64,000 bases of DNA from an uncultured Solirubrobacterales bacterium. GTDB lineage: Bacteria > Actinomycetota > Thermoleophilia > Solirubrobacterales > 70-9. This document shows positions 4,197 to 28,146 of the stretch, one piece after another (position 1 is the stretch's first letter; the number at the start of each line of letters is the position of its first letter). The stretch is taken from assembly GCA_963774305.1 (NCBI GenBank), contig CAVZEM010000007.1:93231-157230 (forward strand), given 5' to 3'. The notes beneath the pieces are model-generated. The model was not told where the DNA came from. It ran no database searches and saw only the letters and a program-made list of their open reading frames with translations. Position numbers and translations under genes: made by a program.

Positions 4197-5158
4197 AGGT
4201 TGCGGTTCTAGGCGGCGGGATCTCGAGCGAGCATGAGGTGTCGCTGCGCTCGGCGGCCTCGGTCGCCGCTGGTCTCCGGGAGGCGGGCCACGAGACCGTC
4301 GAGGTGACCATCGACCGCGAGGGACGCTGGACGACCGACGGCGAGGCGGTCAGCTTCAGTCCGGCCGGGGGCCTCCTGGACTGCGACGTCGCGTTCCCGG
4401 TCCTGCATGGCCCCGGGGGAGAGGACGGCAGCGTTCAGGGGCTGCTGCAGGTCCTCGCCGTCCCCTACGCGGGCTCCGACGTGGAGGCCTCGGCGATCTG
4501 CATGGACAAGCTCGTCTTCAAGGACCTGCTCGCCCGGCACGGCATCCCGCAGGTCGAGTACTGCCGGGCTGGGGAGGCCGACTGGAAGGCGATCGCCTCG
4601 GGATTCGGCCAGCCGGTCTGGGTGAAGCCCGCGCGGCTCGGCTCCAGTGTGGGGATCGCACCCGCCTCCGGTGAGGAGGAGCTCGACCGCGCCGTCGAGC
4701 AGGCGGGCCGCCACGACCCGCGCGTGATCGTGGAGGCGCCCGCGCCGGGCAAGGAGGTCGAGTGCTCGCTGCTCGGCAACGAGGAGCCGATCGCCTCACC
4801 GCCGGGCGAGATCGATACCAAGGGGCACGATTGGTACGACTACGAAGCCAAGTATGCGGAGGGCGGGATGGAGCTGGTGGTCCCGGCGCGCATCTCCGAT
4901 CAGGCGACGGAGCGCCTTCGCGGGCTCGCCAGGGAGGTGTTCACCCTCTGCGGGTGCAGTGGCCTCGCGCGCTGCGACTTCTTCGTCGACGGCGACGTGG
5001 TGCTCGTCAACGAGCTCAACACGATCCCCGGCTTCACCGAGACCAGCGTCTACGGCAAGCTCTTCGAGGCGGACGGGATCTCCTATCCCGAGCTCTGCGA
5101 CCGGCTCGTGAAGCTGGCGTTCGAGCGCCACGAGAGGGCGCGCTCGTACGAGTTCTAG
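4193..5158 (+). CDS. ddl: D-alanine--D-alanine ligase
   Basis: MKVAVLGGGISSEHEVSLRSA N-terminus, ATP-grasp core and C-terminal NELNTIPGFT motif. ATGA overlap with the pknB stop. Confidence 0.92.
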   Translation: MKVAVLGGGISSEHEVSLRSAASVAAGLREAGHETVEVTIDREGRWTTDGEAVSFSPAGGLLDCDVAFPVLHGPGGEDGSVQGLLQVLAVPYAGSDVEASAICMDKLVFKDLLARHGIPQVEYCRAGEADWKAIASGFGQPVWVKPARLGSSVGIAPASGEEELDRAVEQAGRHDPRVIVEAPAPGKEVECSLLGNEEPIASPPGEIDTKGHDWYDYEAKYAEGGMELVVPARISDQATERLRGLAREVFTLCGCSGLARCDFFVDGDVVLVNELNTIPGFTETSVYGKLFEADGISYPELCDRLVKLAFERHERARSYEF

Positions 5159-5283
5159 CGGCCACCAGGCCGTTCCACTTGACCAAACGGGTCGCGCTTA
5201 CGCGCGCCCTCGCATCAAGGGCGAAGCCCGTAGCGACTTCTAGAAGGCGGCCGCTTGTGGCCGCGACCTGATGGCGAAGCCGT
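5158..5283 (-). repeat. Composite intergenic repeat: R2 element (reverse orientation) with an R1 30-nt hairpin (5185..5214) nested in it
   Basis: Its reverse complement aligns end to end with the R2 copies at 12398, 24666 and 28050. The third stem-loop is replaced by AAACGGGTCGCGCTTACGCGCGCCCTCGCA. It exactly fills the gap between the ddl TAG and the kinase TGA. Confidence 0.85.
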
Positions 5284-6770
5284 CAGGCATTACTTAAGAG
5301 TCTCACGTCGCTGATTTCCATCTGGTACCGCCCGGGATCGTCCTTGGCGTGGGGCGGCTTGGTGATCCAGATCAGGAACGACTGGGCGGGCTTGCCGGGA
5401 AGGCGGACCGTCTCGTTGCCGCCGCCGTCGGTGACGGTTGCAACCGGCTGACCCCAGCCGAAGAGGTCGCTGGGCGGCGAGCCGTCCGACTCGTAGATCT
5501 GGGCGTCCCAGCCGGGGGTGGGGCTCCTGATCTCGATCGACGTGGCGGTCACCGCGTTCCCGGCATCGATCGCGAGGCCCACGCCGTCCTTGAGGCCCCC
5601 GAAGTCCTGCGTGTCGTAGTGCTCGGTCGTCCAGGCGGTCCCCGTCGGGTTGGAGTCGACCGCGAGCCGCTGGGTCCCGGTCTCCCGGCCGTCGGCCTCC
5701 GGATCGAACTCGCTGGCGGCGTCGGTCGGCAGCCTGATCTCTTTGCTGCCGCCACTGGATGGGCTGTTGTTGCCGATCTGCTCGCCACCGAAGATCACGG
5801 CGGCCGCGATCAGGGCGATTCCGACGAGCCCCATCACGATCCCCAGCCATGGCCGGCGCCCGCCGCCGAGGCGGCGGCGAGCCTTGGGCACGGAATCGAG
5901 GACGCTGGTCGCTTCGCCGCTGGTGCCCCCGCGGCGCGCCGCCTCGACCTCGAGGGTCTGCTCCAGGTCGCGGACCATCTCGGCGACGGTGCTGTAACGG
6001 TCGCGCGGGTCCTTGGTGGTCGCCCGGTCGACGACTGAGGCGACGACGGCGGACACGTCCGGCCGCTTCGCCTGGACGTCGGGCATCGGCTCGTTGACGT
6101 GCTTCATTGCCACCCCGACCTGCGTCTCGGCCTGGAAGGGGACGTCTCCGGTGAGCATCTCGTAGAGGACGACACCCAGCGAGTAGACGTCGGAGCGCTC
6201 GTCGACATCCTCACCCATCGCCTGCTCGGGGGATACGTAGTCGGTCGTGCCCAGCACCCGGCCGGTCGCGGTCATCCCCTTCTGCTCCAGCGACCGCGCG
6301 ATGCCGAAGTCGGTCACCTTCGCCCGCCCGTCGGGGTCGATCAGCACGTTCTGCGGCTTCACGTCCCGGTGGACGAGCTTGCGCGCATGGGCGGCCGTCA
6401 GGCCGCGCCCGATCTCGATGGCGTAGGCGACCGCCTCGTCGACCGGCAGGGGGCCCTCCTCCTGGATCTGGCGCTTCAGGGTGCGGCCGTCGATGTACTC
6501 GAAGACGATGTAGGGGCGGCCGTCGTCCTCACCCGCGTCGATGACACCGACCAGGTTGGGATGCGAGAGCCGCGCCGCCGCCCTGGCCTCGCGGCGGAAG
6601 CGCTCGAGCTGGTCGGCCTCGTCGGAGATCTCGCGATGGAGCAGCTTGACCGCCACCGGGCGGTCGAGCACCTCGTCGAGCGCCAGGTAGACGGTCGACA
6701 TGCCGCCCGAGCCCAGCTTCGACTCGAGCCGGTAGCGGCCCGAGAGTACGGTGGAGCTCAAACGTTCCAA
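5283..6770 (-). CDS. Ser/Thr protein kinase with TM segment and extracellular C-terminal beta-rich (carbohydrate-binding-like) domain
   Basis: GSGGMSTVYLA, HRDVKPQN, DFGIA and SPEQ motifs; TM segment WLGIVMGLVGIALIAAAVIF. I do not recognise the C-terminal domain precisely. Confidence 0.85.
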   Translation of the reverse strand: MERLSSTVLSGRYRLESKLGSGGMSTVYLALDEVLDRPVAVKLLHREISDEADQLERFRREARAAARLSHPNLVGVIDAGEDDGRPYIVFEYIDGRTLKRQIQEEGPLPVDEAVAYAIEIGRGLTAAHARKLVHRDVKPQNVLIDPDGRAKVTDFGIARSLEQKGMTATGRVLGTTDYVSPEQAMGEDVDERSDVYSLGVVLYEMLTGDVPFQAETQVGVAMKHVNEPMPDVQAKRPDVSAVVASVVDRATTKDPRDRYSTVAEMVRDLEQTLEVEAARRGGTSGEATSVLDSVPKARRRLGGGRRPWLGIVMGLVGIALIAAAVIFGGEQIGNNSPSSGGSKEIRLPTDAASEFDPEADGRETGTQRLAVDSNPTGTAWTTEHYDTQDFGGLKDGVGLAIDAGNAVTATSIEIRSPTPGWDAQIYESDGSPPSDLFGWGQPVATVTDGGGNETVRLPGKPAQSFLIWITKPPHAKDDPGRYQMEISDVRLLSNA

Positions 6771-6800
6771 TTGATTTGCCTTTGCATCGCGCTGTATTTT
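6771..6800 (+). promoter_or_regulatory. Putative sigma-70-like promoter (TTGATT-18 nt-TATTTT) for the DsbA-like gene
   Basis: An AT-rich hexamer pair in an otherwise GC-rich divergent intergenic region. Pattern match only. Confidence 0.25.
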
Positions 6801-6843
6801 CGCCCTCTGCCGTCCCCGCCGCTGAGAGCTTGCACCCGAACGA

Positions 6844-7728
6844 ATGATGACTGTCCAAGTCCGCTTCTACACCGATCCCGCCTGTCCCTGGTCCTGGGCC
6901 GCCGAGCCCGCCCTGCGGAGGCTGATGTGGGAGTTCGAGGGAGAGCTCGAATTCGTCTGGGTGATGGGAGGGCTGGCCCGCCGCTACGGGCGTGAGTACC
7001 GCGACGACGAGGGCCGGATCGGCCACGGTCCCGACTGCCACGCCGATCTGATCTCGCATTGGCTCGTGGTCGCCGCCGACGGGCTGATGCCGACCGATCC
7101 CAGGATCTGGACTGAGAGCCCACTCACCTCGACGTACCCGGCCTGCCAGGCCGTAAAGGCCGCCTCCGAGCAGGGCTGGGAGGCCGGCTACCGCTATCTG
7201 CGCCGCATCCGCGAGGGGATCATGTTCGAGCGCCGCAAGCTCGACCATCCGGAAGCGCTGTTGGCCGCAGCTCGTGGCACTGGCCTCGATCGCCCGCGTT
7301 TCGAGATCGACCTCTTCTCCGAGGCGATCACGGAGGCCTTCGCCGCCGACCTCGACGAGGTCCGCGGTCCGCCCGATGCGGCGCGCGAGGCCGCGGCGGT
7401 GCGCAAGACCGAGGGAAGAGAGCGGATCAGCTTCCCGTCGGCCGTGTTCGTCGCGGATGACGGATCACAGCACGGCGTCTGGGCCATCGCCCGCTCACAT
7501 CCCGCCCTGCGGGACGCGGCGCTGGCGGCGGGCGCCAAACAGCGCAATGAAGGAGTCTTGGAGCCGGCGGATGCGATCCGCCGCTTCGGCCGCTGTGCGA
7601 CGCGGGAGCTGGAGGTGCTGGCCGAGAAGCCCTTGCCGGTGCTCGAGGCAGAACTGTGGGGAATGGCGCGCGACTGGAAGCTGAAGCCGATCCGCGCCCT
7701 CACCGGGACGCTCTGGGAGCCCGCCTGA
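6844..7728 (+). CDS. DsbA-family thioredoxin-fold protein
   Basis: N-terminal FYTDPACPWSW (CxxS/C thioredoxin-fold motif). Size is typical for the DsbA/FrnE-like family. Confidence 0.7.
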   Translation: MMTVQVRFYTDPACPWSWAAEPALRRLMWEFEGELEFVWVMGGLARRYGREYRDDEGRIGHGPDCHADLISHWLVVAADGLMPTDPRIWTESPLTSTYPACQAVKAASEQGWEAGYRYLRRIREGIMFERRKLDHPEALLAAARGTGLDRPRFEIDLFSEAITEAFAADLDEVRGPPDAAREAAAVRKTEGRERISFPSAVFVADDGSQHGVWAIARSHPALRDAALAAGAKQRNEGVLEPADAIRRFGRCATRELEVLAEKPLPVLEAELWGMARDWKLKPIRALTGTLWEPA

Positions 7729-7737
7729 ACCACCCGG

Positions 7738-7777
7738 GTGTCGAGTTCTTTTCGGGCGTGCGAAAGGAACTCGACAC
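7738..7777. terminator. Bidirectional hairpin between convergent genes
   Basis: GTGTCGAGTTCTTTTC-gggcgtgc-GAAAGGAACTCGACAC forms a near-perfect 16-bp stem. It sits between the DsbA-like stop (7728) and the PurM-like stop (7786). Confidence 0.6.
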
Positions 7778-7785
7778 GCCGCCGC

Positions 7786-8784
7786 CTAAGGCCGCGTAAC
7801 GCCCGGTGGCCCCTCGATGGCGTGGCCAATGCGCTTTGCCGCCGGGTAATGGGCCTGCAGCCTCTTCATTGCCGGTGTTTCATCGTCCGCCGCCACCAGG
7901 ACGCAGAACCCGCACCCCATGTTGAAGACCTCGTGCATCTCGTCGTCAGAGACCTCGCCCAGCTCCTGGATGAGCTCGAAGATCGGTGGCACCGGCAGCG
8001 GATCGCCGATCTCGTAGGCCACGTCGGCCTCGAGGCGCAACAGGTTGTTGAGGCCGCCCGAGGTGATGTGGGCCAGGCCGCGGACATCCACGCCGGAGCG
8101 CAGCAGCTCCACGATCGGCTTCACGTAGATCTCTGTGGGCTCCAGCAGGACCTCGCCGAGCGGGCGGCCCAAGCGGTCGTCATCGAGCGGGATGTCGGCG
8201 AGGGCCGAGCGGGCCAGCGTGTAGCCGTTCGAGTGCAGGCCCGAGGAGGGCAGGCCGATCACGGGGTCGCCCGGTTCGATCGCGGCGCCCGTCACCAGGG
8301 AGTCCAGGCCGACCACCCCGAAGCAGGCGCCGGCCAGGTCGAGGCCGTTGATCAGCTCGCCGAGCTGGGCGAGCTCGCCGCCGACGATCTCGATGCCTGC
8401 CAGCTGGGCGCCCCTGCCCAGGCCGACGCCGATCGCCCCGGCGGTCTCGGGGTCCGCCCGGTCGACGGCGAGGTAATCCACCATCGCGAGCGGCTGGGCG
8501 CCGACGCAGACGACGTCGTTGACGTTCATCGCCACGCAGTCGATCCCGACCGTGTCCCAGCGGCCGAGCTGCTCGGCGAGCACGAGCTTCGTTCCGACGC
8601 CGTCGGTGCTCAGCGCGATCCCGGTCCGCTCGTCGAGGCGAACCACGTTGGCGTAGTGGCCGCTGGCGAGGACCTGACGACTCTCCGTGAGCGAGGAGGC
8701 GGCCAGGGCGGAGACGAGGGCCGCCACCGCGGCGTCGGCGTCGCCCTGACTCACTCCCGCCTTGGCGTAGGCGTCTTCGCTCAT
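7786..8784 (-). CDS. AIR-synthase (PurM)-superfamily protein, divergent
   Basis: From the ATG at 8784: MSEDAYAKAGVS...STDGVGTKLVLAE...GIDCVAMNVNDVVCVGAQP...GGELAQL...SSGLHSNGYTL. The rest of the 650-aa track ORF is an Arg-rich out-of-frame overlap of uppP. Confidence 0.75.
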   Translation of the reverse strand: MSEDAYAKAGVSQGDADAAVAALVSALAASSLTESRQVLASGHYANVVRLDERTGIALSTDGVGTKLVLAEQLGRWDTVGIDCVAMNVNDVVCVGAQPLAMVDYLAVDRADPETAGAIGVGLGRGAQLAGIEIVGGELAQLGELINGLDLAGACFGVVGLDSLVTGAAIEPGDPVIGLPSSGLHSNGYTLARSALADIPLDDDRLGRPLGEVLLEPTEIYVKPIVELLRSGVDVRGLAHITSGGLNNLLRLEADVAYEIGDPLPVPPIFELIQELGEVSDDEMHEVFNMGCGFCVLVAADDETPAMKRLQAHYPAAKRIGHAIEGPPGVTRP

Positions 8785-9701
8785 CCGGACCGCCTCTCGG
8801 GACCCGTGCGCGCCCCCGCCCAGCTGGGAGCGCCATTGCCCGCCGCGGCGCCGTTGCCGCTCGGTGTGGAGGCGACGCCGTCCGGTTTCAGGTAGACGCG
8901 CCGCGCCCGCCTGCGGCGCCAGAGGTTCGCGAGCACGCTTCCAGCCAGCCCGGCGCGATAGGCGGCGTAGGGCCAGAGGGCGCTGTCGCGCTCCACCAGC
9001 CGGATCAGCTCCTGGGAGGCGAGGGTCGACGCGAACGAGGTCGCCGTCCCGGCTGCGAAGCCGGCTCGTGCCTCGGGCGGCAGGCCGCGCCGCCGCAGGC
9101 GGATGCCCTTGAGGACGGCTGCTCCGACGATCACCGGCAGCGCGACGGTCCGGGAGAGCATGTTCGAATGCTGCCGCGTGAAGCCGCGCCAGCGGGCAGC
9201 CGTCAGGGTCGCCCCGTTGCGTGAGATGCCGGGAGCGAGGGCGGTGGCCTGGGCCAGCCCAAGCGCCAGCCCGTCCATCGCCGTGGCGCGACCCCGGTCG
9301 CGGACCTGTGGCCGGCGATCGGCGATCACCATCGCGGCCGCGCCGGCGAGCAGGCCGATCGCGGTGGGAACCGGTCCGCCCAGGTGTCGCTCGATCGGGC
9401 GCTCGAGGGCCACCCCGCAGACCACCGGAGGCAGGAACGAGAGGGCCAGCACGGTGGCCTTCCGACGGTCGAAGGAGCTCAGCTCCTCGGCGATCACACG
9501 CCGCTGTCCGATCAGCAGGGCCGCCGCGGCGCCGGCATGCAGGGCGACCTCGAAGCTCTTCTGCAGTTCGGGGTCGCGTCCGTCCTCGTCCCAGCCGGCG
9601 AGCCAGGGGATCAGGGTGAGATGGGCGGAGCTGGAGACCGGGAGAAGCTCGGTCGGCCCCTGCACGGCGCCGAGGACGATCGCCCTCGACCGCCTCATCA
9701 T
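8781..9701 (-). CDS. uppP: Undecaprenyl-diphosphate phosphatase
   Basis: GAVQGPTELLPVSSSAHL signature; multi-TM. ATGA overlap with the PurM-like start. Confidence 0.9.
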   Translation of the reverse strand: MMRRSRAIVLGAVQGPTELLPVSSSAHLTLIPWLAGWDEDGRDPELQKSFEVALHAGAAAALLIGQRRVIAEELSSFDRRKATVLALSFLPPVVCGVALERPIERHLGGPVPTAIGLLAGAAAMVIADRRPQVRDRGRATAMDGLALGLAQATALAPGISRNGATLTAARWRGFTRQHSNMLSRTVALPVIVGAAVLKGIRLRRRGLPPEARAGFAAGTATSFASTLASQELIRLVERDSALWPYAAYRAGLAGSVLANLWRRRRARRVYLKPDGVASTPSGNGAAAGNGAPSWAGARTGPERRSG

Positions 9702-10372
9702 GAAGCGGGCTGCTCCTCAGCGTCCCCCTCGGGGCCACCGCGCATCTCAGTGGGCGGCGTGTCGCCGCCGCGGCGTCGCCGGATCACCAGATAGATGATG
9801 GCGGCGATGGCGGCCAGGACGACCACGTAGTCGAGGAAGGCGAGCCTCTGGTGCCATTTGTCCCAGTTGTCGCCGACCGCGCGGCCGATCAGGGCCAGGC
9901 TCGAGAGCCAGATCACCGAGCCGGCGAGTGTGAAGGGGATGAAGCGGCGGAGCGGCATCTCCGCGACCCCCGCCGGCAGCGAGATGAAGGCGCGCACGAG
10001 CGGGATCAGCCTGCCGACGAAGACCGTGATGTCGCCGTGGCGCTTGAACCAGCCGTCCGCCCAGTCGAGGCGCTTGTGGTCTATGTGGATCAGCTTGTTC
10101 CTCTCGAGCAGCTCGATCCGGCCGTAGTACCCGACCGCGTAGGCGATGCAGCAGCCGATCAGCTCTCCGGCCACCCCGGCGGCGATCACGCCGAGCAGGG
10201 TGAGGTCGCCGTCGCTCACCTTGAAGCCGGCGAACATCATCGTCGCCTCGCTCGGGATCGGGATGCAGGCGCTGCCCAGCATCGTCAGCACGAAGACGCC
10301 GGCATAGCCAACCGAGCCGATGAAATCGGTGCAGAGGTTGACGAGTGGATCGAGGAGAGCGGCGATCGGCAT
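9698..10372 (-). CDS. DedA-family membrane protein
   Basis: SACIPIPSEATMMFAGF and GRLIPLVRAFISLPAG motifs typical of DedA/SNARE-associated proteins. Its stop overlaps the uppP start. Confidence 0.85.
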   Translation of the reverse strand: MPIAALLDPLVNLCTDFIGSVGYAGVFVLTMLGSACIPIPSEATMMFAGFKVSDGDLTLLGVIAAGVAGELIGCCIAYAVGYYGRIELLERNKLIHIDHKRLDWADGWFKRHGDITVFVGRLIPLVRAFISLPAGVAEMPLRRFIPFTLAGSVIWLSSLALIGRAVGDNWDKWHQRLAFLDYVVVLAAIAAIIYLVIRRRRGGDTPPTEMRGGPEGDAEEQPAS

Positions 10373-10497
10373 GAAATTCAGCGCGGATGGGCAGCCCCGG
10401 GCCCGCGCGGCGCCACATGGTAGGGAGTTGCAGTTCGCCTCGCGGGGATCCTCATTTTTCCCGGTTTTCGCCGGAGCGCACTAGACTCGCTGCTCGC

Positions 10498-12393
10498 GTG
10501 GAGCGGCTCAAGCACCCCGTCTACAGGCACCGCCTGATCCAGCTCGCCGCAGACGCAGTCCTCATCGCGGCCGCCTACTACCTGGCCTTCAGGTTGCGGT
10601 TCCTCGATGCCTCAGGCGGCATCCCGGACCGCTACGACCACATGCTCGGCCACTCCATCGGTTTCGTCGTCGCCGGCCAGCTGATCGTCTTCTACGCCTT
10701 CGGCCTGTACGAGAAGTGGTGGCGCTACTTCCGCCTGCCGGACATGATCGCCGTCCTCCGCGCCTGCGCGGTCTCGACGGCGATCCTGGCGATCGCCTTC
10801 CTGCTGCTCAAGCCATTCGACGACCAGATCCCGCGCTCGGTCGTCGTCAGCTACTTCCTGCTCACGGTCTTCCTGATCGGCGGGGCGCGGCTGCTGGTGC
10901 GGATGCTGCTCGTCGAGCGGATGGCGCGGCGCGACGTTCGCGGCGCCCGCCGCGTGCTGGTGGTCGGCGCGGGCTCGGGCGGCCAGATGGTTGCCCGCGA
11001 GATGCAGCTCAACCCGAATCTCGGCTCCCGCGCGATCGGCTTCCTGGACGACGATCCCCGGAAGCGCGGCATGCGCCTGCACAGCATCAACGTGCTCGGC
11101 ACCACTGACGAGGTCGGCGAGATCCTGGACGAGTTCCACCCCGACGAGGTGATCATCGCGATCCCCTCGGCGCCGGGCGTGCTCCGCGGCCGAGTCGTGA
11201 CGGCCTGCCGCGAACGCGACGTCCCGGTGCGGACGCTGCCCACCGTGTTCGAGCTGCTCCGGGGGGGAGTCCAGCTCACCAGGCAGCTGCGCGAGGTCCA
11301 GGTCGAGGACGTGCTCGGTCGGGAGCCGGTGAAGATGGAGCTCGACCGGGTCGGCGCCTACATCCAGGACAAGGTGGTCCTGGTCACCGGCGCCGGTGGC
11401 TCTATCGGCTCGGAGCTGGTCCGCCAGATCGCCCGGGTGCGGCCGAAGCTGCTGGTCATCCTCGACCACGCCGAGGACAACCTCTTCCGGATCGACCGCG
11501 AGATGATCGAGGAGCGGCACTTCGCCCGGGTCGAGTCGGTGCTAGCCGACTGCAAGGAGGGGGACCGGATGCTCGAGGTGATGCAGCGCTTCAAGCCGGC
11601 GGTCGTCTTCCATGCCGCGGCGTACAAGCACGTCACCCTGATGGAGGCGAACCCGCTCGAGGCGATCCGCAACAACGCGATGGCCACCAAGGTCACCGCG
11701 GAGACCGCAGTCGCCTCGGGCTGCGAGCGCTTCGTGCTCGTCTCCACCGACAAGGCAGTCAATCCGCGCACCGTGATGGGTGCCTCCAAGGCGATGGCCG
11801 AGTGGATCGTGGAGGCTGCCGGCCGCAAGCACCCACAGACCCGCTTCGTCACGGTCCGCTTCGGAAACGTCCTCGCCTCCTCCGGCAGCGTGGTCCCGAT
11901 CTTCCGCAGCCAGATCGAGCGCGGCGGGCCGGTCACCGTGACCGATCGTGAGATGACGCGCTACTTCATGACCATCCCGGAGGCCGTTCAGCTGGTGATC
12001 CGCTCCGGCGACCTCGGTGGCGCCAGCGGAGAGGTCTTTGTGCTGGAGATGGGAGAGCCGGTGAAGATCGTCGACCTGGCCCACAACATGATCCGGCTGG
12101 CGGGATACGAGCCAGAGGTCGACATCGCCGTCGAGATCGTCGGGGCCCGGCCCGGAGAGAAGCTCCACGAGGAGCTGTTCAACTCCGACGAGCGGCCTCA
12201 GCCAACGGCGTCGGACCGGATCGTGCGCGCCGTTCGCCACGCCCCGCTCGACCCGGAGTGGGTCAACGGCACGCTGGGTCGTCTCGAAACCTTGATCCGA
12301 GAAGGCGACGAGGCCCACCTGGCGGAGCAGACCGTGGAGCTGGTCTCCGCGCGGCGGGCAACCGAGCTTCCCGTTGACGATCTGACTGCTTAG
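10498..12393 (+). CDS. CapD/WbpM/PglF-like membrane-anchored NDP-sugar 4,6-dehydratase/epimerase
   Basis: N-terminal TM helices, then VLVTGAGGSIGSEL (Rossmann fold), HAAAYKHV and STDKAVNP motifs. The GTG at 10498 is preferred over the track start at 10387 (start uncertain). Confidence 0.85.
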   Translation: MERLKHPVYRHRLIQLAADAVLIAAAYYLAFRLRFLDASGGIPDRYDHMLGHSIGFVVAGQLIVFYAFGLYEKWWRYFRLPDMIAVLRACAVSTAILAIAFLLLKPFDDQIPRSVVVSYFLLTVFLIGGARLLVRMLLVERMARRDVRGARRVLVVGAGSGGQMVAREMQLNPNLGSRAIGFLDDDPRKRGMRLHSINVLGTTDEVGEILDEFHPDEVIIAIPSAPGVLRGRVVTACRERDVPVRTLPTVFELLRGGVQLTRQLREVQVEDVLGREPVKMELDRVGAYIQDKVVLVTGAGGSIGSELVRQIARVRPKLLVILDHAEDNLFRIDREMIEERHFARVESVLADCKEGDRMLEVMQRFKPAVVFHAAAYKHVTLMEANPLEAIRNNAMATKVTAETAVASGCERFVLVSTDKAVNPRTVMGASKAMAEWIVEAAGRKHPQTRFVTVRFGNVLASSGSVVPIFRSQIERGGPVTVTDREMTRYFMTIPEAVQLVIRSGDLGGASGEVFVLEMGEPVKIVDLAHNMIRLAGYEPEVDIAVEIVGARPGEKLHEELFNSDERPQPTASDRIVRAVRHAPLDPEWVNGTLGRLETLIREGDEAHLAEQTVELVSARRATELPVDDLTA

Positions 12394-12397
12394 CGGC

Positions 12398-12493
12398 AAA
12401 CGGCTTCGCCATCAGGTCGCCGCCACAGGCGGCCGCCCCTGATAACCGCTCGGGGCTTCGCCCCTCGCTCATAGCGGGCGGCCTGGTGGCGGC
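12398..12493 (+). repeat. R2 structured intergenic repeat
   Basis: AAACGGCTTCGCCATCAGGTC-GCCGCCAC...GGGGCTTCGCCCC...GTGGCGGC. The closing stem carries a compensatory change relative to the other copies. Confidence 0.8.
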
Positions 12494-12521
12494 TGGCCCC
12501 TTAACATCCCGCGCCGCGGCC

Positions 12522-20124: not shown

Positions 20125-21285
20125 ATGGCGCTCGAGATCGTCTTCTGGGCCGCGGTCGGCCTGATCGTCTACGCCCACCTGGGCTATCCGCTGCTGCTCT
20201 GGGTGCTGGCCAAGCTCTTCGGGGAGGGGGACGGGGCGAGGGCGCGCGACAGCGCGACCCGTGAGATGAGGGAGGCCGATGTTGAGCTTCCTCACGCCAC
20301 GCTGGTCATCCCCGCCTACGACGAGGAGGAGGTGATCGAGCGCAAGATCGCCAACGCGCGGGCGCTCGACTACCCCGCGGATCGACTGGAGATCGTGGTC
20401 GCCTCGGACGGGTCGAGCGACCGGACGGCCGAGCTGGCGCGCGAGGCGGGAGCAGACCGCGTGCTTGAGCTTCCGCGCGGCGGCAAGGTCGCTGCCCTCA
20501 ACCAGGCCGTGCGGGAGGCGACCGGCACGGTCCTCGCCTTCTCCGACGCGAACAGCTTCTGGCGCCCTGACGCACTGCGTCGCCTGATCGCCCGCTTCGC
20601 CGACTCGCGCGTCGGATACGCCTGCGGCCAGGTGCGCTTCGAGGGGGGCGAAGGCGGCAACCAGGAAGGCATCTACTGGCGCTACGAGATGGCGGTGCGC
20701 TCGATGGAGACGAGGCTCGCTGGGATCACGGCGGGCAACGGCGCGATCTATGCGGTCCGTCGGGAGGCGTATATCGAGCTCGATCCCAGCCGCGGCCAGG
20801 ACATAGGCTTCCCGTTCGAGCTGACCAAGCGAGGCTGGCGCGCCGTCTACGAGCCCACGGCGGTGGCCGAGGAGAAGATGGCCCCGACGGTCGAGGGAGA
20901 GTTCCGCCGCAAGCGCCGGATGATGTGGGGGCTCTGGGACGTGATGCTCAAGTGGGGCATGCTCGACCCGCGCGGCTACGGCCCCGGCTACGCCCTCGAG
21001 ATCTACTCTCACCGCCTGCTTCGCTACCTGACGCCATGGCTGCACCTGATCGCGCTCGGGACCAACGTGGCGCTGCTCGGGCACGCGTGGGTATACGTCG
21101 CAACGATGGCACTGCAGCTCGCGCTGCTGGTCGGGGCGCTGCTCGGGCGCTTCGTCCCCGCCCTGCCGTTCAGGATCGCCTACTACTACGTCACCGTGAC
21201 CGCCTCCATCGCAGTGGGACTCTGGGACCGGCTCCGAGCCGGATCCGTGCCGATCGGCTGGGAGAAGGTCGAGGGCACCCGATGA
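20125..21285 (+). CDS. Membrane glycosyltransferase family 2 (processive-type topology)
   Basis: N-terminal TM, LVIPAYDEEEVI, VASDGSSDRT, FSDANS and GNGAIYAVRR motifs, plus C-terminal TM helices. Confidence 0.85.
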   Translation: MALEIVFWAAVGLIVYAHLGYPLLLWVLAKLFGEGDGARARDSATREMREADVELPHATLVIPAYDEEEVIERKIANARALDYPADRLEIVVASDGSSDRTAELAREAGADRVLELPRGGKVAALNQAVREATGTVLAFSDANSFWRPDALRRLIARFADSRVGYACGQVRFEGGEGGNQEGIYWRYEMAVRSMETRLAGITAGNGAIYAVRREAYIELDPSRGQDIGFPFELTKRGWRAVYEPTAVAEEKMAPTVEGEFRRKRRMMWGLWDVMLKWGMLDPRGYGPGYALEIYSHRLLRYLTPWLHLIALGTNVALLGHAWVYVATMALQLALLVGALLGRFVPALPFRIAYYYVTVTASIAVGLWDRLRAGSVPIGWEKVEGTR

Positions 21286-22546: not shown

Positions 22547-23454
22547 AGGCGACCCTGATCGCGGACGGCGGCGCGGCCGCCTCCGACGACGACAACTTCT
22601 TCCGCTCGACGCCGTTTCTCGAAGCCGAGGGGGCGACCCACACGGTCGAGGTCGAGGGTGTCCTGCGCCTGCCCGTGATCGTCCGCTCGATCGAGGGAAC
22701 GGAGCGCGTCGATGGGATCTCGCCCTACGGGTATCCGGGGGCCTCCGGGAGCTACGAGGAGCCCATCGATCCCAGCGGGATCGACTGGTCCGGGACGCGA
22801 CTGGTCAGCGTCTTCGTGCGAGATCGGATCGGCCGGGAGTGTCTGTCCGGCGGCACAGTTCGGAACCACGTTCACATCGCCGACGGAGATTCCGGCATCC
22901 GCAAGCGCCTCCGCGAGCAGATCAGGCGCAACGAGCGGCGCGGCTGGCAGGTGGAGGTGCTCGGCGGCCCCGAGGCGGACGGCGCGGCGCGGTCGGCGTT
23001 CGAGCGTGCCTACACCGAGACCATGGCCCGCACCGGCGCGGCCGGGCGGTATCTCTACCCGACCGAGTACTTCGAGCGGCTGCTGCGAAGCGACCGGAGT
23101 TGGCTCGTTCTGGGCGAGCGCGAAGGGAACGGGCTTGCCGGAGCGATCGCTGTCGCCAGCGACGGCTACCTGCACTACTACCTCGGCGGCACGGCTGACG
23201 GGGCACTCGGCGACTCGCCGATGAAGAACCTGTTCGCGGCGATGATCTCGCTCGGCACAGAGCTCGGGGTGCCGCTGAGCCTCGGAGGCGGCCTCACCCC
23301 GGGGGACTCGCTGGACTCCTTCAAGCGCGGCTTCGCGAACGGCGAGGCGCCGTTCCACACCCATGAGCTGATCTGCGACCGAGCCGTCTATGAGGAGCTG
23401 GTCGCCGGGTCGGGCCCTGCGCCCGAGGGCTTCTTCCCCGCCTATCGGTCTTGA
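22543..23454 (+). CDS. FemAB-like/Acetyltransf_6-type acyltransferase
   Basis: YLHYYLGGTADGALGDSPMKNLFAAMISLGTELGVPLSLGGG resembles FemAB/BioF2-like GNAT-fold proteins found in exopolysaccharide loci. The assignment is tentative. Confidence 0.55.
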   Translation: MKATLIADGGAAASDDDNFFRSTPFLEAEGATHTVEVEGVLRLPVIVRSIEGTERVDGISPYGYPGASGSYEEPIDPSGIDWSGTRLVSVFVRDRIGRECLSGGTVRNHVHIADGDSGIRKRLREQIRRNERRGWQVEVLGGPEADGAARSAFERAYTETMARTGAAGRYLYPTEYFERLLRSDRSWLVLGEREGNGLAGAIAVASDGYLHYYLGGTADGALGDSPMKNLFAAMISLGTELGVPLSLGGGLTPGDSLDSFKRGFANGEAPFHTHELICDRAVYEELVAGSGPAPEGFFPAYRS

Positions 23455-24648
23455 TCAAACGGGTGGCGCTGACGCGCGCCCTCGCACATGCTTCTTGCGC
23501 CGTCCCTTCGCGAAGCGCTTGATGCGCTTCTGCACGGCTGCCTGGAGTTGCGGGACCAGCGGGATCATCGCCCCGCCGGGACAGGCGGTCAGCCCGAGCG
23601 TGGTGTGTCCCAGGACCCGAGGCACGGTGATCACGGTCCCCGCCGGATAACGGCTCTCCGATCCGCCGGCCGAGGTGAGCTGTACGGCGCCGGTGGCGGG
23701 GGTGGCGTGGTTGATCCCCATCTTCCAGGCCAGGAACTGGATGATCGAGCGCTGGGCCTGCGGGGTCGGGGGCTCGCTCGTGTGGTCGCCGATCGAGGCG
23801 ATCGAGGTTGTCTGCGAGTTGAAGCCCTGCGCCTGCGCGCCGACGACCGGGCGCTTCAGGCCGCCGGCGCGGCCCTCGTAGAGCGTCCCGAAGCGGTCGA
23901 CGAGCGCGTCGTAGCCGATGTCGTTCCAGCCGTTGCCGAAGACGTGAAAGCGGCAGATTCCGAGGGCGATGGAGGGCGCCTCGGCGGGCGTGTAGTCGTT
24001 GGCGTTCACGGTGTGGTGGATCACGGCGGCCCGCACGGTGCCGTACTGCGGCGGCCCCCGGGGTGGGCAGCCGCCGTCGGCGAGGTCCGCGCCCCAGGCG
24101 GCGCGGCTGACGACCTGGGGCTTCGGCGACAGGGCCTGGGCGATCGGCGTGGAGGCGACGGAGATCACCGCGGCGTTGATCGCGTGCCGGGCGGAGTTCA
24201 CGAGCCGGTCGGCGAAGCTGCCCGCCGTTCCCGAGACGTTCACGAAGTGCAGGCGCCCGTGTGGCCGGAACGGGGCCCGCACCTGGGCGATGTCCGCGCC
24301 CCCTACATAGATCGGCGTGCCGTCCTCCTGCTCCACCCAGTCGCTCCAGTGGCCGCCGTCGTCGCGAACTCGGATCTGGACGCTGTGGGGCTCGCGCGCG
24401 ACCCCGACCAGGTCGAAGCGGTGGGGCGCCTCCACGGGCGCCGAGATCCAGCGCGGCGCCTTCTCGTGAGGATGCGCGGACCGGACCGAGGCGATCGCAG
24501 CGGGCGCCATGCGCTTCGCGGCGGGAATCGCGTGCTCGAAGTCGACCGCCCCGGGCATGTACGGGCGCAGCGACAGCGCCGGCGCGGCGACCCAGGCGAG
24601 GGCCGTGATCAGCGCCAGGCACACCCCCGTCAGCACCTTCACGCGCAT
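23455..24648 (-). CDS. Secreted N-acetylmuramoyl-L-alanine amidase (Amidase_2/PGRP domain)
   Basis: AVIHHTVNANDY...CRFHVFGNGWNDIGYDALVDRFGTLYEGRAGG. The signal-peptide-like start MRVKVLTGVCLALITALAWVAAPA at 24648 is preferred. The track start at 24678 lies inside an R2 repeat. Confidence 0.8.
   Translation of the reverse strand: MRVKVLTGVCLALITALAWVAAPALSLRPYMPGAVDFEHAIPAAKRMAPAAIASVRSAHPHEKAPRWISAPVEAPHRFDLVGVAREPHSVQIRVRDDGGHWSDWVEQEDGTPIYVGGADIAQVRAPFRPHGRLHFVNVSGTAGSFADRLVNSARHAINAAVISVASTPIAQALSPKPQVVSRAAWGADLADGGCPPRGPPQYGTVRAAVIHHTVNANDYTPAEAPSIALGICRFHVFGNGWNDIGYDALVDRFGTLYEGRAGGLKRPVVGAQAQGFNSQTTSIASIGDHTSEPPTPQAQRSIIQFLAWKMGINHATPATGAVQLTSAGGSESRYPAGTVITVPRVLGHTTLGLTACPGGAMIPLVPQLQAAVQKRIKRFAKGRRKKHVRGRASAPPV
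23457..23486 (+). repeat. R1 30-nt hairpin repeat
   Basis: AAACGGGTGGCGCTGACGCGCGCCCTCGCA between convergent genes. Its reverse strand supplies the last codons (RGRASAPPV) and the stop of the amidase ORF. Confidence 0.85.
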
Positions 24649-24665
24649 CCTGTGTTTGGAACACA

Positions 24666-24762
24666 TCGGCTTCGCCATCAGATCGCGGCCACGAGCGGCC
24701 GCCCCACATAAGTCGCTCCGGGCTTCGCCCTCCGCTCCAAAGTGGAGCGGCCTGGTGGCCGC
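24666..24762 (+). repeat. R2 structured intergenic repeat
   Basis: CGGCTTCGCCATCAGATC-GCGGCCAC-...-GGGCTTCGCCC-CCGCTCCAAAGTGGAGCGG-CCTG-GTGGCCGC. Its last base is the first base of the DUF3105 stop codon (CTA on the + strand). Confidence 0.85.
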
Positions 24763-25541
24763 TATCCGAGGTTGATGGGAACCTGCTGCTCCGGCCCGTT
24801 GCCGCGGTACTTGTCGCGGAAGTTACGGATCACGTCCAGCACGACGGGGTTGTAGTTCGGGCAGACGACCTCGTTGGTCCACGCGGTGACCGCGACGTCG
24901 TAGGGCATGTCGGGGTCGGGATAGAGCAGAACGCCGTCGGGATCCGCGTCGAAGACGCCCTTGAGGGCCAGCTGCTGGTCCTGGGTCAGGCCCGGCTTGT
25001 AGTGGATCTCGATCCGCCCATGCTCCATCGCGTGGACCTCGTTGCGGATGTTGGTCTCCTTGCTCGTGTCGCTGGTGACCGGCGTCCGATAGGCGCCGTC
25101 CGAGATCGGGACAGGGTTGTGGTTGCCCGAGGTCGGCGGCACGGTCCCGTAGTGGACCGGCGTCGAGTTCGGCACGTGCGTGTTGCCCTCGTCCGGCAGG
25201 TTCTCCTTGAGCTGACAGCCCGCCTTCTGGGCGGAGGCGGCGAGGTCGCCGAACTGGGTCGGGGCGACGGACTCGCTCGTCCCCTGCCGGCAGTCGGGTG
25301 TCAGGTCCTTGAAGCTGCCCGTGTTCTGGATGTGGGCGTTGCTGCAAGCGTCGGCCGCGGCGCTTCCACCGCCACCACCACTCGCGATCACGGCGACCAG
25401 CCCTGCGATCACCGTCGCCGTGAGGAGACCGGCGACGACGTAGCCGGCCATCAGGCGCCGGCGCCCGCCGGATTGCGACGCCCGCTCGGCGGCGAGTCGC
25501 TGCGCGCGGAGGCGCTCCTTCTCTTCCTTGCGGCTGGCCAT
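24762..25541 (-). CDS. DUF3105-domain membrane-anchored protein
   Basis: N-terminal TM, then ...HAMEHGRIEIHYKPGL...AVTAWT..., characteristic of DUF3105. Confidence 0.65.
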   Translation of the reverse strand: MASRKEEKERLRAQRLAAERASQSGGRRRLMAGYVVAGLLTATVIAGLVAVIASGGGGGSAAADACSNAHIQNTGSFKDLTPDCRQGTSESVAPTQFGDLAASAQKAGCQLKENLPDEGNTHVPNSTPVHYGTVPPTSGNHNPVPISDGAYRTPVTSDTSKETNIRNEVHAMEHGRIEIHYKPGLTQDQQLALKGVFDADPDGVLLYPDPDMPYDVAVTAWTNEVVCPNYNPVVLDVIRNFRDKYRGNGPEQQVPINLG

Positions 25542-25570
25542 GGGAGGGCGAAGAGGCTAGCGGAGGCGGT

Positions 25571-26425
25571 TCAAGCCTCGCTTAGCGCGTCCCCAGTAGC
25601 CCCGGCGGCGGCTTCTGTGGCCGCCGGATGATGCTGGCCCCAGACCTCTTCGAGGAACTTGGCCAGCTCGGCATCGAGCCGCTCCGGCGAGATCCGCCAC
25701 TCGAGTATGGAGTTCGCCTCGATCAGCCGTGCATTCGGGAGCTCCTCCACGAGCATCCCCGAATCCGAGAAGGGGTGGAGCGGGTCGGCGCGGTGGCCGA
25801 TCACCAAGGCGGGCTGAGTCATCTTGACCCGGAACTGCTTGTGGGGCGCCGAGGACCCGAGGAAGAGCCCCTCCAGGATGGCCGAGGAGGGAGCGGGGTC
25901 CTGACGAGCCATGTCGAGACCCATGTCGAGCAGTGGATTGGTCCGCGGGATCTTCCGCGCGGCCGCAGCAACGCGGCGGAGCAGCGGCTCGCCCAGCCGC
26001 AGACCGACCATGATCGGCGTGAAGATCAACGCCGCCGCCAGCAGGGCGTTGTCGAGGACCGGCATCTCGATCATCATCGCCCTCACCCGCTTGGGGGCCA
26101 TGTGGTCTAGCTCGAGTGTCGCGTTCGCACCCAGTGAGGTCCCGCCGACCACGGCCTGATCGATCCCGAGGTGATCCATCAGGGCCTCGACCTGGCGTGC
26201 GAAGAAGGTCATGGAGTAGTTCGACATCTCCGCCGGGCGATCCGAGCGGCCGTGTCCCAGCAGGTCCACTGCGATCACCCGGTTGCCGAGCGCCGCCATC
26301 TCGGGCCCCAGCCGGTCGAACATCCGCCGGTTCATCAGCAACCCGTGGATCAGAATCAGCGGCCGGTCGCCCTCTCCGTGCTCGTCGTAGGAGATTGTGT
26401 TGCCGTTGTAGTCGAACTCGGGCAT
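25571..26425 (-). CDS. Alpha/beta hydrolase
   Basis: PLILIHGLLMN, LLGHGRSD and the GGTSLGA nucleophile elbow. Confidence 0.8.
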   Translation of the reverse strand: MPEFDYNGNTISYDEHGEGDRPLILIHGLLMNRRMFDRLGPEMAALGNRVIAVDLLGHGRSDRPAEMSNYSMTFFARQVEALMDHLGIDQAVVGGTSLGANATLELDHMAPKRVRAMMIEMPVLDNALLAAALIFTPIMVGLRLGEPLLRRVAAAARKIPRTNPLLDMGLDMARQDPAPSSAILEGLFLGSSAPHKQFRVKMTQPALVIGHRADPLHPFSDSGMLVEELPNARLIEANSILEWRISPERLDAELAKFLEEVWGQHHPAATEAAAGATGDALSEA

Positions 26426-26449
26426 CGCGGCGAGAGTCTAGGCGCAGGC

Positions 26450-27370
26450 TCAGGCGGCGCCGGCGGTCGCGGGCGCTCCAGGTTCCCGCTCCTCCCAGGG
26501 CTTGGCGGCGTGCAGAGCTCCCAGGATCGCCCGGGCGGCGGGCCAGCGGTTGAGCGCGTACAGGTGGATGCCGGGGGCGCCCCGGCGCAGGAGATCGGCG
26601 CACTGCTGCGTCGCGTAGGCCACACCCAACTCGAACTCGGCGCGCTCGTCGCCGTCGAGCGCCTCCATCGCGGAGGCGAGCGGCTCTGGGATCGTCGCCT
26701 CGCAGAGCTCGGAGATCCGGGCGATCTGCCTGAACCCGGTCATGGGCATCACCCCGGGAATGATCGGCACGTCGATGCCCGCCGCCCGCGCCGCCGGCAC
26801 GAAGTCGAAGTAGAGCTGGTTGTCGAAGAAGAGCTGCGTGATCAGGAAGCTGACGCCGTTGTCGACCTTGGTCTTCAGGTAGGCGAGGTCGGCCTCCAGG
26901 CTCGGGGCCTCCGGGTGGATCTCCGGAAAGCAGGCGCCGCCGATCGCGATCTCGGGATGGGTCTCGTGGATCAGCGCCGCCAGCTCCGACGCGCTGCCCA
27001 GGCCGCCCTCGGGCTGCTCGAAGTGCTTCTCCCCGCGCGGCGGATCGCCCCGCAGGGCGAGGATGTTCTCGATCCCGGCGTCAGCGATCCGGTCGATCAT
27101 CTCCCGCAGGCTCTCGGTCGTCTCGCCGACGCAGCTCAGGTGCGCCATCGCCTCCGAGTCGTACTGGTCGCGGATCGCCTTGGTGGTGTCGAGCGTGCCC
27201 TCGCGGGTGGCGCCGCCGGCGCCGTACGTCACCGAGAAGAAGTGCGGATCGAGCCGGCGCAGCACCTCGACGGTCTCGAACAGGGTCTGGCGCCCCTCGT
27301 CGGTCTTGGGAGGGAAGAACTCGACCGAGAAGACCGGCCGGGCCGAAGAAAGCATTTCGTCGATCTTCAT
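26450..27370 (-). CDS. metF: Methylenetetrahydrofolate reductase
   Basis: From the ATG at 27370: MKIDEMLSSARPVFSVEFFPPKTDEG...FSVTYGAGG...LRGDPP...ITQLFFD. Confidence 0.9.
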   Translation of the reverse strand: MKIDEMLSSARPVFSVEFFPPKTDEGRQTLFETVEVLRRLDPHFFSVTYGAGGATREGTLDTTKAIRDQYDSEAMAHLSCVGETTESLREMIDRIADAGIENILALRGDPPRGEKHFEQPEGGLGSASELAALIHETHPEIAIGGACFPEIHPEAPSLEADLAYLKTKVDNGVSFLITQLFFDNQLYFDFVPAARAAGIDVPIIPGVMPMTGFRQIARISELCEATIPEPLASAMEALDGDERAEFELGVAYATQQCADLLRRGAPGIHLYALNRWPAARAILGALHAAKPWEEREPGAPATAGAA

Positions 27371-27408
27371 CAGAGCAAGGGTATTGAGCGGGCCATAGCA
27401 TCGAGCCA

Positions 27409-28050
27409 ATGGCGTTTCACGTGGAGATCTCGAGCGGCTTCCGGCAGCGGGCCCGTGCATTCAACCTGGACGAGGCGAAGCTGCGCAGCTCGATCGTCGA
27501 TCCGTGGATCCGCGAGCGCCCGATCTCCCTGGGGGACAAGGAGTGGGAGCCGCGCGACTGCAAGCTGATCATCCTCGAGGGTCCGGAGCTGCCCGACACC
27601 GACCTCTCGATGGGCCGGGGTTGGTCGAACGCCGAGAAGACGGCAGAGAACGTCACACGCCGGCTGATCGATGCCGCATCCACGCCGTCGAAGCCTGTCG
27701 TCGCCATCGTGGCCGAGGGTGATGGGACGGCTGCCGAGATCTCCCGCATGCTGGAGCGGCTCGGGCTCGAGGCGGCTCCCTGGCCGGAGCTGCGCGCCCG
27801 GATCCTGAGCCCACCGGCGACGCCCTCGGGGCCAGGCTACGCGGCCGTGCTCGCGACCGACAGCGCCGAGCCCGGGGCTTCCTGGCTGTTCGATGCCGGA
27901 CTGGCGCGTGGTGCTCTCGGCCCTCGCGCCGTGGTCGCTCAGCTCGGAGACGCCTCCATCCCTGCCCAGCTTGCCGGAGTGGACGTCATCCGCTTGGTGC
28001 CGGACGACGAGATGTCGCTGCGGGCGCTGGGGGACCGGCTTAGTGGCTGA
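27409..28050 (+). CDS. Hypothetical protein
   Basis: A 213-aa ORF with coding-like composition and no motif I recognise. Its TGA stop is fused to the 5' end of an R2 repeat. Confidence 0.5.
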   Translation: MAFHVEISSGFRQRARAFNLDEAKLRSSIVDPWIRERPISLGDKEWEPRDCKLIILEGPELPDTDLSMGRGWSNAEKTAENVTRRLIDAASTPSKPVVAIVAEGDGTAAEISRMLERLGLEAAPWPELRARILSPPATPSGPGYAAVLATDSAEPGASWLFDAGLARGALGPRAVVAQLGDASIPAQLAGVDVIRLVPDDEMSLRALGDRLSG

Positions 28051-28146
28051 CGGCTTCGCCTCCAGAACGCGGCTGCAGGCGGCCGCCCCACACAAGTCGC
28101 TTCGGGCTTCGCCCTTCGCTCCGAGGTGGAGCGGCCTGGCAGCCGC
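28050..28146 (+). repeat. R2 structured intergenic repeat
   Basis: ACGGCTTCGCCTCCAGAAC-GCGGCTGC-...-GGGCTTCGCCC-CGCTCCGAGGTGGAGCG-...-GCAGCCGC, flanked by TGA (upstream gene) and TTA (the usp stop on the minus strand). Confidence 0.85.

Follow-up and report, generated by a model that had tools for sequence, protein, structure and literature searches.

A probable REP-like extragenic palindromic repeat family with covarying stems in Solirubrobacterales

Introduction

Four similar sequences of roughly 100 nt lie in narrow gaps between genes in a stretch of DNA from an uncultured Solirubrobacterales bacterium (64,000 nt of contig CAVZEM010000007.1, hereafter the window), and the question raised by this locus is what kind of element they represent. 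An original prediction, made from the letters of the sequence alone, grouped them as a repeat family named R2, and described a closing stem that changes in a compensated manner between copies, borders that coincide with the stop codons of flanking genes, and a behaviour resembling that of the MIRU, repetitive extragenic palindromic (REP) and BIME elements of other bacteria. The follow-up presented here indicates that R2 is probably a non-coding, non-autonomous extragenic palindromic repeat family of Solirubrobacterales, similar to REP sequences, REPINs and miniature inverted-repeat transposable elements (MITEs). R2 is best described as a so far unreported representative of an established class of element, not as a new kind. 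R2 is gained and lost in tiny gaps beside stop codons, in either orientation; its stems stay complementary through many two-sided substitutions, with the head and the apex held constant; and it tolerates the nesting of another hairpin repeat, R1, within its body.

Four dispersed copies in the window

Each R2 element begins with an invariant 19-nt head (ACGGCTTCGCCATCAGRTC, which contains a GGC-TTC-GCC mini-hairpin) and continues into a two-part long hairpin, made of stems S1 and S2 and carrying an apical GGGCTTCGCCC hairpin. The copies in the window, with their scores from a covariance model trained on 59 copies, are as follows.

5156-5283, reverse strand: copy 1, 128 nt, 49.7 bits; head 5265-5282, S1 5' arm 5257-5264, S2 5' arm 5246-5252, apical hairpin 5219-5229, S2 3' arm 5168-5178, S1 3' arm 5158-5165, TA 5156-5157; the element fills the gap between ddl (4193-5158, forward) and a Ser/Thr kinase gene (5283-6770, reverse)
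12400-12495, forward strand: copy 2, of the AACCGCTC sub-type, 91.4 bits; head 12401-12418, S1 12419-12426 with 12486-12493 (GCCGCCAC/GTGGCGGC), S2 12431-12438 with 12476-12483, apical hairpin 12452-12464; between a CapD-like polysaccharide biosynthesis gene (stop codon TAG at 12391-12393) and a LytR_C gene (start about 12522)
24666-24764, forward strand: copy 3, 123.1 bits; head 24667-24684, S1 24685-24692 with 24755-24762, S2 24697-24707 with 24742-24752, apical hairpin 24720-24730; between an amidase gene (start near 24650, reverse) and a DUF3105 gene (24762-25541, reverse)
28050-28148, forward strand: copy 4, 114.0 bits; head 28051-28068, S1 28069-28076 with 28139-28146 (GCGGCTGC/GCAGCCGC), S2 28081-28091 with 28126-28136, apical hairpin 28104-28114; between an open reading frame (ORF) of 213 amino acids with no family assigned (27409-28050, forward) and a Usp gene (28147-28917, reverse)

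When the window was scanned with this model and with filters off, the four copies were recovered at the places originally proposed, with refined spans, and well above the next match of 15.6 bits at 56614-56654 (reverse-strand echoes of the copies being set aside). Aligned to one another they have a mean column identity of 71%, and the similarity ends at the borders. A repeat finder applied to the window also returned them, as direct family D1 and inverted pairs I3, I5 and I6. The head motif CGGCTTCGCCATCAG occurs four times in the window at zero to two mismatches, with a shuffle expectation of about zero, and the two arm motifs have chance expectations of 0.00-0.01 in shuffles. Within the window each arm motif was found only inside full copies, and no REP-type singlet arms were present. 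The genes beside the four copies are of housekeeping type and unrelated to one another, which identifies the copies as dispersed repeats rather than parts of larger segmental duplications, the outcome named beforehand as fatal to the prediction. Copy 1 is longer than the others because it contains a nested 36-nt copy of the different repeat R1.

Covariation defines a long two-part hairpin

The conserved structure was derived from an alignment (A2) of 65 R2 copies from 29 genomes, using RNAalifold together with explicit pair counts. RNAalifold returned the head mini-hairpin, the 8-bp closing stem S1, the long-range stem S2 and the apical hairpin; S1 and S2 form a long imperfect hairpin in which an internal loop and one C.A mismatch are conserved. 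Two-sided changes occur at seven of the eight S1 pairs, where 95% of cells are paired, and at all six pairs of S2 (S2a, GGCCGC/GCGGCC). Of the 33 haplotypes of S1, 19 are perfectly complementary. The arms GCGGCCAC-AAGC-GGCCGCC and GGAGCGGCC-TG-GTGGCCGC pair as S1 plus S2, with two-sided changes at 13 of the 14 S1/S2a pairs, and each arm is itself palindromic (GCGGCC...GGCCGC), so that the whole of R2 resembles a REPIN. Over the full model, 19 of 28 pairs show two-sided changes compared with 8.9 ± 1.6 after shuffling (none of 500 shuffles reached 19), and 89.9% of model cells are paired compared with 34-52% when the partners are slid. The S1 variants first listed for the window copies are exactly those found, and the selection on pairing that they were taken to indicate is borne out across the larger alignment. 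The form under selection may be either of the two then suggested, RNA or single-stranded DNA.

The internal layout first proposed was a junction of several stems, of which S1 and the apical GGGCTTCGCCC hairpin stand. The CCGCTCCAAAGTGGAGCGG stem-loop and the stem ahead of the apex do not: the local hairpin CCGCTCC/GGAGCGG has two-sided changes at none of its seven pairs, and neither has the stem AGCGG/YCGCT before the apex, obtained by single-sequence folding (0/7). Where the shared 3' strand changes, the compensation falls in the upstream GGCCGCC and not in CCGCTCC. The CCGCTCC...GGAGCGG hairpin shares its 3' half with S2, which is why covariation does not support it, and the multi-stem layout was rejected as a conserved structure in favour of long-range S2. 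The multi-stem junction may exist as an alternative fold, but what is conserved is the long two-part hairpin.

Compensated changes also occur in the apical and head hairpins. Among copies found without the anchors used in searching, the apical hairpin occurs as GGCC-TTC-GGCC, GGCGG-TCT-CGCC and GCGGCCGC-ATG-GCGGCCGC, and in one metagenomic copy the hairpin of the head is changed, with compensation, to CC-TTC-GG. Folds of single copies as RNA gave z-scores of -3.2 to -4.4 relative to shuffled sequences in seven of eight strand folds, the eighth being the forward strand of copy 4 (-1.33). The C.A mismatch (alignment columns 55/102) is conserved in 54 of the 64 copies with letters at both positions, and is U.G on the other strand. 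Transition-type mismatches in S1 and S2 comprise 15 A.C and 4 G.T on the forward strand (p about 0.02), a weak hint, from 19 cells of which some are non-independent, that the minus strand folds or that mutation is strand-biased.

Borders coincide with stop codons

Conservation falls to background beyond alignment column 15 (A) at one end and columns 119-120 (T, then A/T) at the other. The 3' end of S1 runs into GC-TA, GC-TTA or GC-TCA, which reads TAG, TAA or TGA on the other strand; T follows in 59 of 65 copies and then A in 43 of 65, and the flank is conserved on that side only. An opposite-strand ORF of at least 90 codons stops exactly at the 3' end of S1 in 46 of 70 copies, and on the head side an ORF of at least 140 codons ends 0-12 nt before CGGC in 26 of 70. 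Codon composition indicates a gene directed into R2 on 42 of the 60 flanks assessed on the right, and on 38 of the 55 on the left. Among elements with a call on both sides, 17 lie between convergent, 27 between co-directional and only 3 between divergent genes; within the co-directional pairs the two orientations of R2 are about equally common (14 vs 13). In the window, the coincidence of borders and stop codons was confirmed at every predicted place; the stop codons beside the four copies are the following.

5156-5158, forward strand: ddl stop TAG, overlapping the last stem base of copy 1
5283-5285, reverse strand: kinase stop TGA, overlapping the first base of copy 1
12391-12393, forward strand: CapD-like gene stop TAG, 7 nt ahead of copy 2
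24762-24764, reverse strand: DUF3105 stop TAG, at the end of copy 3
28048-28050, forward strand: stop TGA of the 213-amino-acid ORF, at the start of copy 4
28147-28149, reverse strand: Usp stop TAA, at the end of copy 4

The kinase gene beside copy 1 (5283-5320, reverse) ends in ...DVRLLSNA*, and its relatives end in ...DVRLLK*. Its frame appears to have been shifted past an old TAA by the loss of one nucleotide in an A-run, and now stops at the TGA that overlaps copy 1.

The reverse complement of the head contains an ATG that might serve as a start codon carried from site to site. Of the 58 copies that keep this ATG, only 10 have an ORF of at least 100 codons beginning there, which is the chance level, and the idea was rejected. 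The upstream ATG of the amidase ORF had already been called spurious, and this is consistent with the head ATG not being a systematic start codon. An intrinsic (Rho-independent) terminator was likewise rejected: no R2 copy has a canonical hairpin followed by a T-run, the T-run being missing, and between 12 and 29 kb of the window such sites number 4, compared with 4.3 expected by chance.

Distribution among relatives

Related elements were sought with the pattern CGGCTTCGCC-N38-48-GGGCTTCGCCC, in one genome per species, using anchors that leave out the stems under test. At least 117 loci matched, about half of which hold true R2 elements. Among the matches listed, the true elements all belong to Solirubrobacterales, Conexibacteraceae or unclassified Actinomycetota metagenome-assembled genomes (MAGs), and the remaining ones are chance occurrences in conserved coding DNA or an unrelated Bradyrhizobium repeat. 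A nhmmer search of the window and the collected loci (each designated below by L and a number) gave 74 matches, of which about 70 are full copies, and R2 was found in at least 28 species-level MAGs of Solirubrobacterales and Conexibacteraceae. Ten of the full copies lay outside the pattern selection, corresponding to approximately one extra copy per 45 kb. No match was found in the plasmid search; the viral search gave seven pattern matches of at most 17 bits under the covariance model, which are chance matches and not R2 elements, and carriage of R2 by phages or plasmids was rejected on these grounds.

Copies do not cluster by genome. Identity is 0.80 among copies of the same genome and 0.78 between genomes, and only 5 of 54 copies have their nearest neighbour within their own genome, these five being members of local duplicate pairs. 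Genome-specific bursts of R2 were therefore rejected.

Gain, loss and persistence at orthologous sites

The window shares synteny with the MAG loci L088 (77% identity over 8 kb), L108 and L021, and this synteny places its source in Solirubrobacterales.

61668-61691, strand not assigned: empty orthologous site, a 24-nt gap between convergent genes that is filled in the syntenic Conexibacteraceae locus L108

At this site L108 carries a full R2 copy (7075-7172), and the gap in the window keeps GGCGGAGCC, which is similar to the head hairpin.

The ddl site was followed through 80 ddl-orthologous metagenome loci (62-94% amino-acid identity), in which 34 junctions downstream of the gene were read. 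These are mostly gaps of 0-6 nt or overlapping stop codons, and only two R2 copies occur in the 489 kb of these loci. Where the junction is occupied, its contents vary: R1 alone in opposite orientations (L127 and L136), a truncated R2 reversed relative to the window copy (L140), a partial R2 with a piece of R1 (L138), or a solo head (L120 and L130). Such varied contents argue that this convergent gap has been colonised repeatedly and independently. Two further loci, L121 and L142, hold a different small hairpin element, TGACGGGCTCCCACATAAACGGCGGCCACAAGAACCGCCGCCGCATCTAG, in the ddl/kinase gap just after ddl (about 1981-2030 in L121); it has GCGGCCACAAG in common with an R2 arm.

Other sites have retained their elements. 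Copy 2 and the copy in L088 are orthologous and filled at the same nucleotide; one compensated S1 pair differs between them, and L088 has an R1-type hairpin in place of the segment 3' of the apex. In the orthologous copies of L042 and L070, CCAC/GTGG stands against CTGC/GCAG. Identity between orthologous elements is 77-89%, close to that of their flanking coding DNA (72-91%). Taken together, these comparisons point to an old family with ongoing turnover and constrained pairing.

R1, nesting and modular heads

R1 is an imperfect hairpin of approximately 36 nt, with the form (T)GATGCGAGGGCGCGCG-NNAG-CGCGACCCGTTT(G/C)AT and the core GAGGGCGCGCGTNAGCGCGACCCGT. It often begins at a stop codon (TAGATGC, TAGTGC or TGATGC), and its start, (C)TGATG-CGA, is shared with the reverse complement of the R2 head, CTGATGGCGAAG. 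The window contains seven copies, together with a solo R2 head that was absent from the original prediction.

5181-5216, reverse strand: R1 nested in R2 copy 1 (GATGCGAGGGCGCGCGTAAGCGCGACCCGTTTGGTC; 5180-5218 when listed with the R1 family), replacing the CGCTCC segment 3' of the apical hairpin
20234-20268, forward strand: R1
23452-23489, reverse strand: R1
42233-42270, reverse strand: R1
50857-50894, forward strand: R1
51039-51076, forward strand: R1
56625-56661, reverse strand: R1, adjoining the solo R2 head
56614-56626, forward strand: solo R2 head ACGGCTTCGCCGC, lacking the hairpin body, 15.6 bits

The junction of the nested copy, GCCC(C)T followed by GATGCGAGGG, recurs in the R2 copies of L024 and L088. 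The head behaves as a module: besides the window it is solo in L120 and L130, it stands in tandem in L087, L016, L022 and L076, and L012, L030, L062 and L058 combine it with different hairpin bodies. A tandem pair of R2 units occurs once, in L048, where the second unit lacks the head core; other sites are single-copy.

Nesting was also observed among R1-like elements. R1 copies, or a GGCGAAGCC mini-hairpin, are nested in a larger R1-like hairpin (GATGCGAGGGTGCTC[...]GGAGCAACCCGT) at four sites, which suggests that R1-type elements insert into the loops of resident hairpins.

L005, 5527-5558: nested hairpin
L032, 7005-7044: nested hairpin
L088, about 5895-5945: nested hairpin
L130, 3279-3319: nested hairpin

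Copies of R1 also separate the kinase motifs PENILV and AKLxDFG in L132 (1520-1556) and L021 (3237-3271). In these two organisms R1 appears to sit in-frame, at orthologous positions, within a Ser/Thr kinase gene, and in this it resembles the in-frame palindromic elements of Rickettsia.

Interpretation

The behaviour described above is that expected of a REP-like family, as the original prediction had proposed: R2 is extragenic, it is found mainly between convergent or co-directional genes, and its occupancy is polymorphic. The sequence was not recognised there as a described family, and Rfam, plasmid, viral and literature searches gave no match. Full-text literature searches did not turn up repeats of this kind in Solirubrobacterales or Conexibacter. 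REP-like repeats are not known from Thermoleophilia.

A working model could be formulated on this basis. The head and the apex would be the recognition determinants for a putative mobilising or binding protein, and the stems would need only to pair. An inserted element would be transcribed with its flanking gene and would fold into a stable hairpin beginning at the stop codon, serving as a terminator lacking a T-tract or as a protector of the 3' end, and working in both directions. Such two-way function would account for the retention of full Watson-Crick pairing in preference to G.U wobble.

Several points weigh against this interpretation. The proposed role at 3' ends is drawn by analogy with REP, ERIC and Correia elements. 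Without clustering by genome, old constrained copies or a conserved master would fit the data as well as recent mobility, and occupancy of the same site could partly reflect hot spots or gene conversion instead of descent; gene conversion between copies may be a contributor. No target-site duplication of 2-5 nt was detected at any boundary offset (best 11 of 65 copies vs 6.0 expected) and there are no strict terminal inverted repeats, so classical transposition is not demonstrated. Finally, tBLASTn of the window and 197 loci (1.4 Mb in total) with IS200, IS608 and RAYT probes gave nothing at E<0.04, which is a weak test.

A tentative alternative, to be regarded as rather unlikely, concerns the mobilisation step only and is compatible with a REP-like family: R2 could be moved as single-stranded DNA by an HUH/Y1 enzyme, such as an IS200/IS605 TnpA or RAYT-like protein, that recognises the GGC-TTC-GCC and GGGC-TTC-GCCC hairpins and inserts beside TA, a dinucleotide found mostly in stop codons in a genome of 69% GC. 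The missing target-site duplication and the one-sided flank at the 3' end of S1 (T in 59/65, A in 43/65) agree with this mechanism, as do the conserved mini-hairpins (GCGAAGC on the minus strand), stems that are structural and not sequence-specific, and hairpins nested inside hairpins. The excess of A.C over G.T on the forward strand (15 vs 4) would correspond to G.T being tolerated on the minus strand, but this asymmetry is based on only 19 cells, some of them not independent. Insertions of the IS200/IS605 family are biased by replication strand. The orientation of R2 with respect to local GC skew (30 vs 40 copies, p=0.28) gives no sign of such a link, and a tie to the replication strand was rejected. 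Single REP-like arms outside full copies are absent from the window and the GTAG motif is missing, and the weak transposase search matched no Y1 or RAYT homologue in the window or loci.

Somewhat more doubtful is the proposal that R2, R1 and the variants joining the head to other hairpins are carried, as non-autonomous cargo, by a mobilisation system of Thermoleophilia that has so far escaped recognition. Such a system would read the constant 16-19-nt head and accept any stable hairpin as the body. Its insertions would cause no duplication, and would fall beside the TA of stop codons and within the loops of hairpins already present, which would give rise to nested hairpins. Its mechanism could be REP/RAYT-like or RNA-mediated, with new recognition logic.

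It is improbable that R2 is a dedicated structured RNA, for example a cis-regulatory element of 3' untranslated regions, a small RNA or a self-cleaving ribozyme, whose copies reflect function. Covarying stems together with unpaired stretches of high conservation are what functional RNAs usually show, seven of the eight strand folds outperform shuffled controls (z -3.2 to -4.4), and the conserved C.A (columns 55/102) would be a U.G wobble on the minus strand. However, the even orientation within co-directional pairs (14 vs 13) leaves no strand consistently transcribed, the neighbours are unrelated housekeeping genes, and polymorphic occupancy, a reversed copy at one site and a foreign repeat nested in the body are all contrary to it. 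Rfam, one of the databases recommended for checking the original prediction, provides no family either: at gathering thresholds the whole window yields only two tRNAs and a thiamine pyrophosphate (TPP) riboswitch, none at R2, and a permissive search (E<=10) of R2 gives at most 17.6 bits (E>=0.14). The best ribozyme matches are not common to the copies. Hammerhead, which was prompted by CUGAUGG on the minus strand, was rejected (Hammerhead_II, 14.8 bits against a gathering threshold of 37, E about 1-2), and so was twister-sister, at chance level (13.6 bits against 34, E about 1-2).

Still less credible is a classical MITE, that is, a deletion derivative of an insertion sequence with a DDE transposase moved by cut-and-paste, for instance at TA by IS630/Tc1-like enzymes. 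R2 is small, non-coding, of high copy number and polymorphic in insertion, TA follows the 3' end of S1 in 43 of 65 copies, and the inverted arms make a long hairpin. Against this, no boundary has a direct repeat of 2-5 bp (best 11/65 vs 6 expected), the inverted arms are variable (33 S1 haplotypes) and subterminal with the 19-nt head outside them, and no longer element with the same ends was found in the 1.4 Mb. An integron attC site was rejected because the consensus has no GTTRRRY core and the copies are dispersed, in both orientations, among housekeeping genes. Chance similarity of GC-rich DNA (68.8% GC) or larger segmental duplication can be discarded with near certainty, given scores of 50-123 bits over a background of at most 16, sharp borders and differing flanking genes.

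Significance

As a REP-like family, R2 adds a well-supported structured repeat, with a covariance model, to an under-studied order of soil actinobacteria, and its orthologous sites form a clear series of filled, empty and inverted cases. The elements explain spurious ORF extensions and start codons in annotation, and mark the 3' ends of genes in genomes without canonical terminators. They probably also break short-read assemblies, and use as strain markers could follow. The invariant head, freely covarying stems, fusion to stop codons and nesting of R1 make R2 a tractable case in which to ask how REP-like repeats spread when no transposase can be recognised, and whether they serve their hosts as terminators. 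The finding is of moderate interest to specialists and useful for annotation.

Other features of the window

The remaining observations in the window concern other sequences. The TPP riboswitch lies at 59407-59516 (forward, 67 bits). The tRNA genes at 39307-39379 (reverse) and 43664-43736 (forward) form an inverted pair with 80% complementarity (I4). A 30-nt tandem repeat at 41368-41457 (CCGAGCCGGAGCCGGAGCTTCCCGCCGAAG) has two identical units and a third at 77%, with a fourth copy, also at 77%, at 41620-41649; it is probably a coding repeat rich in Pro and Glu. Segments 2382-2818 and 6295-6737 show inverted similarity (73-80% over 80-100 nt) and both encode protein kinase domains; they were rejected as a repeat element, being paralogous kinase genes on opposite strands.

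Comparison with known repeat systems

Insertion-sequence-derived palindrome-associated transposable elements (PATEs) of the IS200/IS605 type have in common with R2 small conserved hairpins, the lack of target-site duplication, a one-sided flank and probable single-strand folding. PATEs carry mini-hairpins at both ends, whereas R2 carries them at one end and in the middle and has no replication-linked orientation signal. MIRU elements are likewise actinobacterial and intergenic within operons, with ends that overlap flanking stop and start codons. They are tandem direct repeats of 46-100 bp with no long hairpin, whereas R2 is usually a single copy per site with a covarying hairpin, and the translational coupling of MIRU by stop/start overlap has no counterpart in R2, where the head ATG is not used as a start.

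The ERIC/IRU and Correia (CREE/NEMIS) elements are closer in form. Like R2 they are imperfect palindromes of about 100-150 nt in transcribed intergenic regions, which form long mRNA hairpins, can provide stop codons or sites of processing, and differ between strains in where they are inserted. Neither family resembles R2 in sequence, and Correia elements are set apart by their conserved terminal inverted repeats and TA duplication, where R2 has variable subterminal arms and no duplication.

The greatest number of shared features is with REP/BIME sequences and REPINs, which are mobilised by RAYT in Escherichia coli and Pseudomonas. These too are short, GC-rich extragenic palindromes in many copies, located at the 3' ends of genes between convergent or co-directional and rarely divergent genes, often within a few nucleotides of stop codons, and their stems are kept by compensation. 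In REPINs, as in R2, two inverted arms make up one long hairpin and there is no target-site duplication. R2 differs from REP/BIME sequences and REPINs in having no GTAG, no singlet arms in the window and no sequence similarity to known REPs, and in its conserved apical hairpin and its asymmetric 19-nt conserved head outside the hairpin. Its hosts, in an actinobacterial order of Thermoleophilia, are also unlike those of REP sequences.

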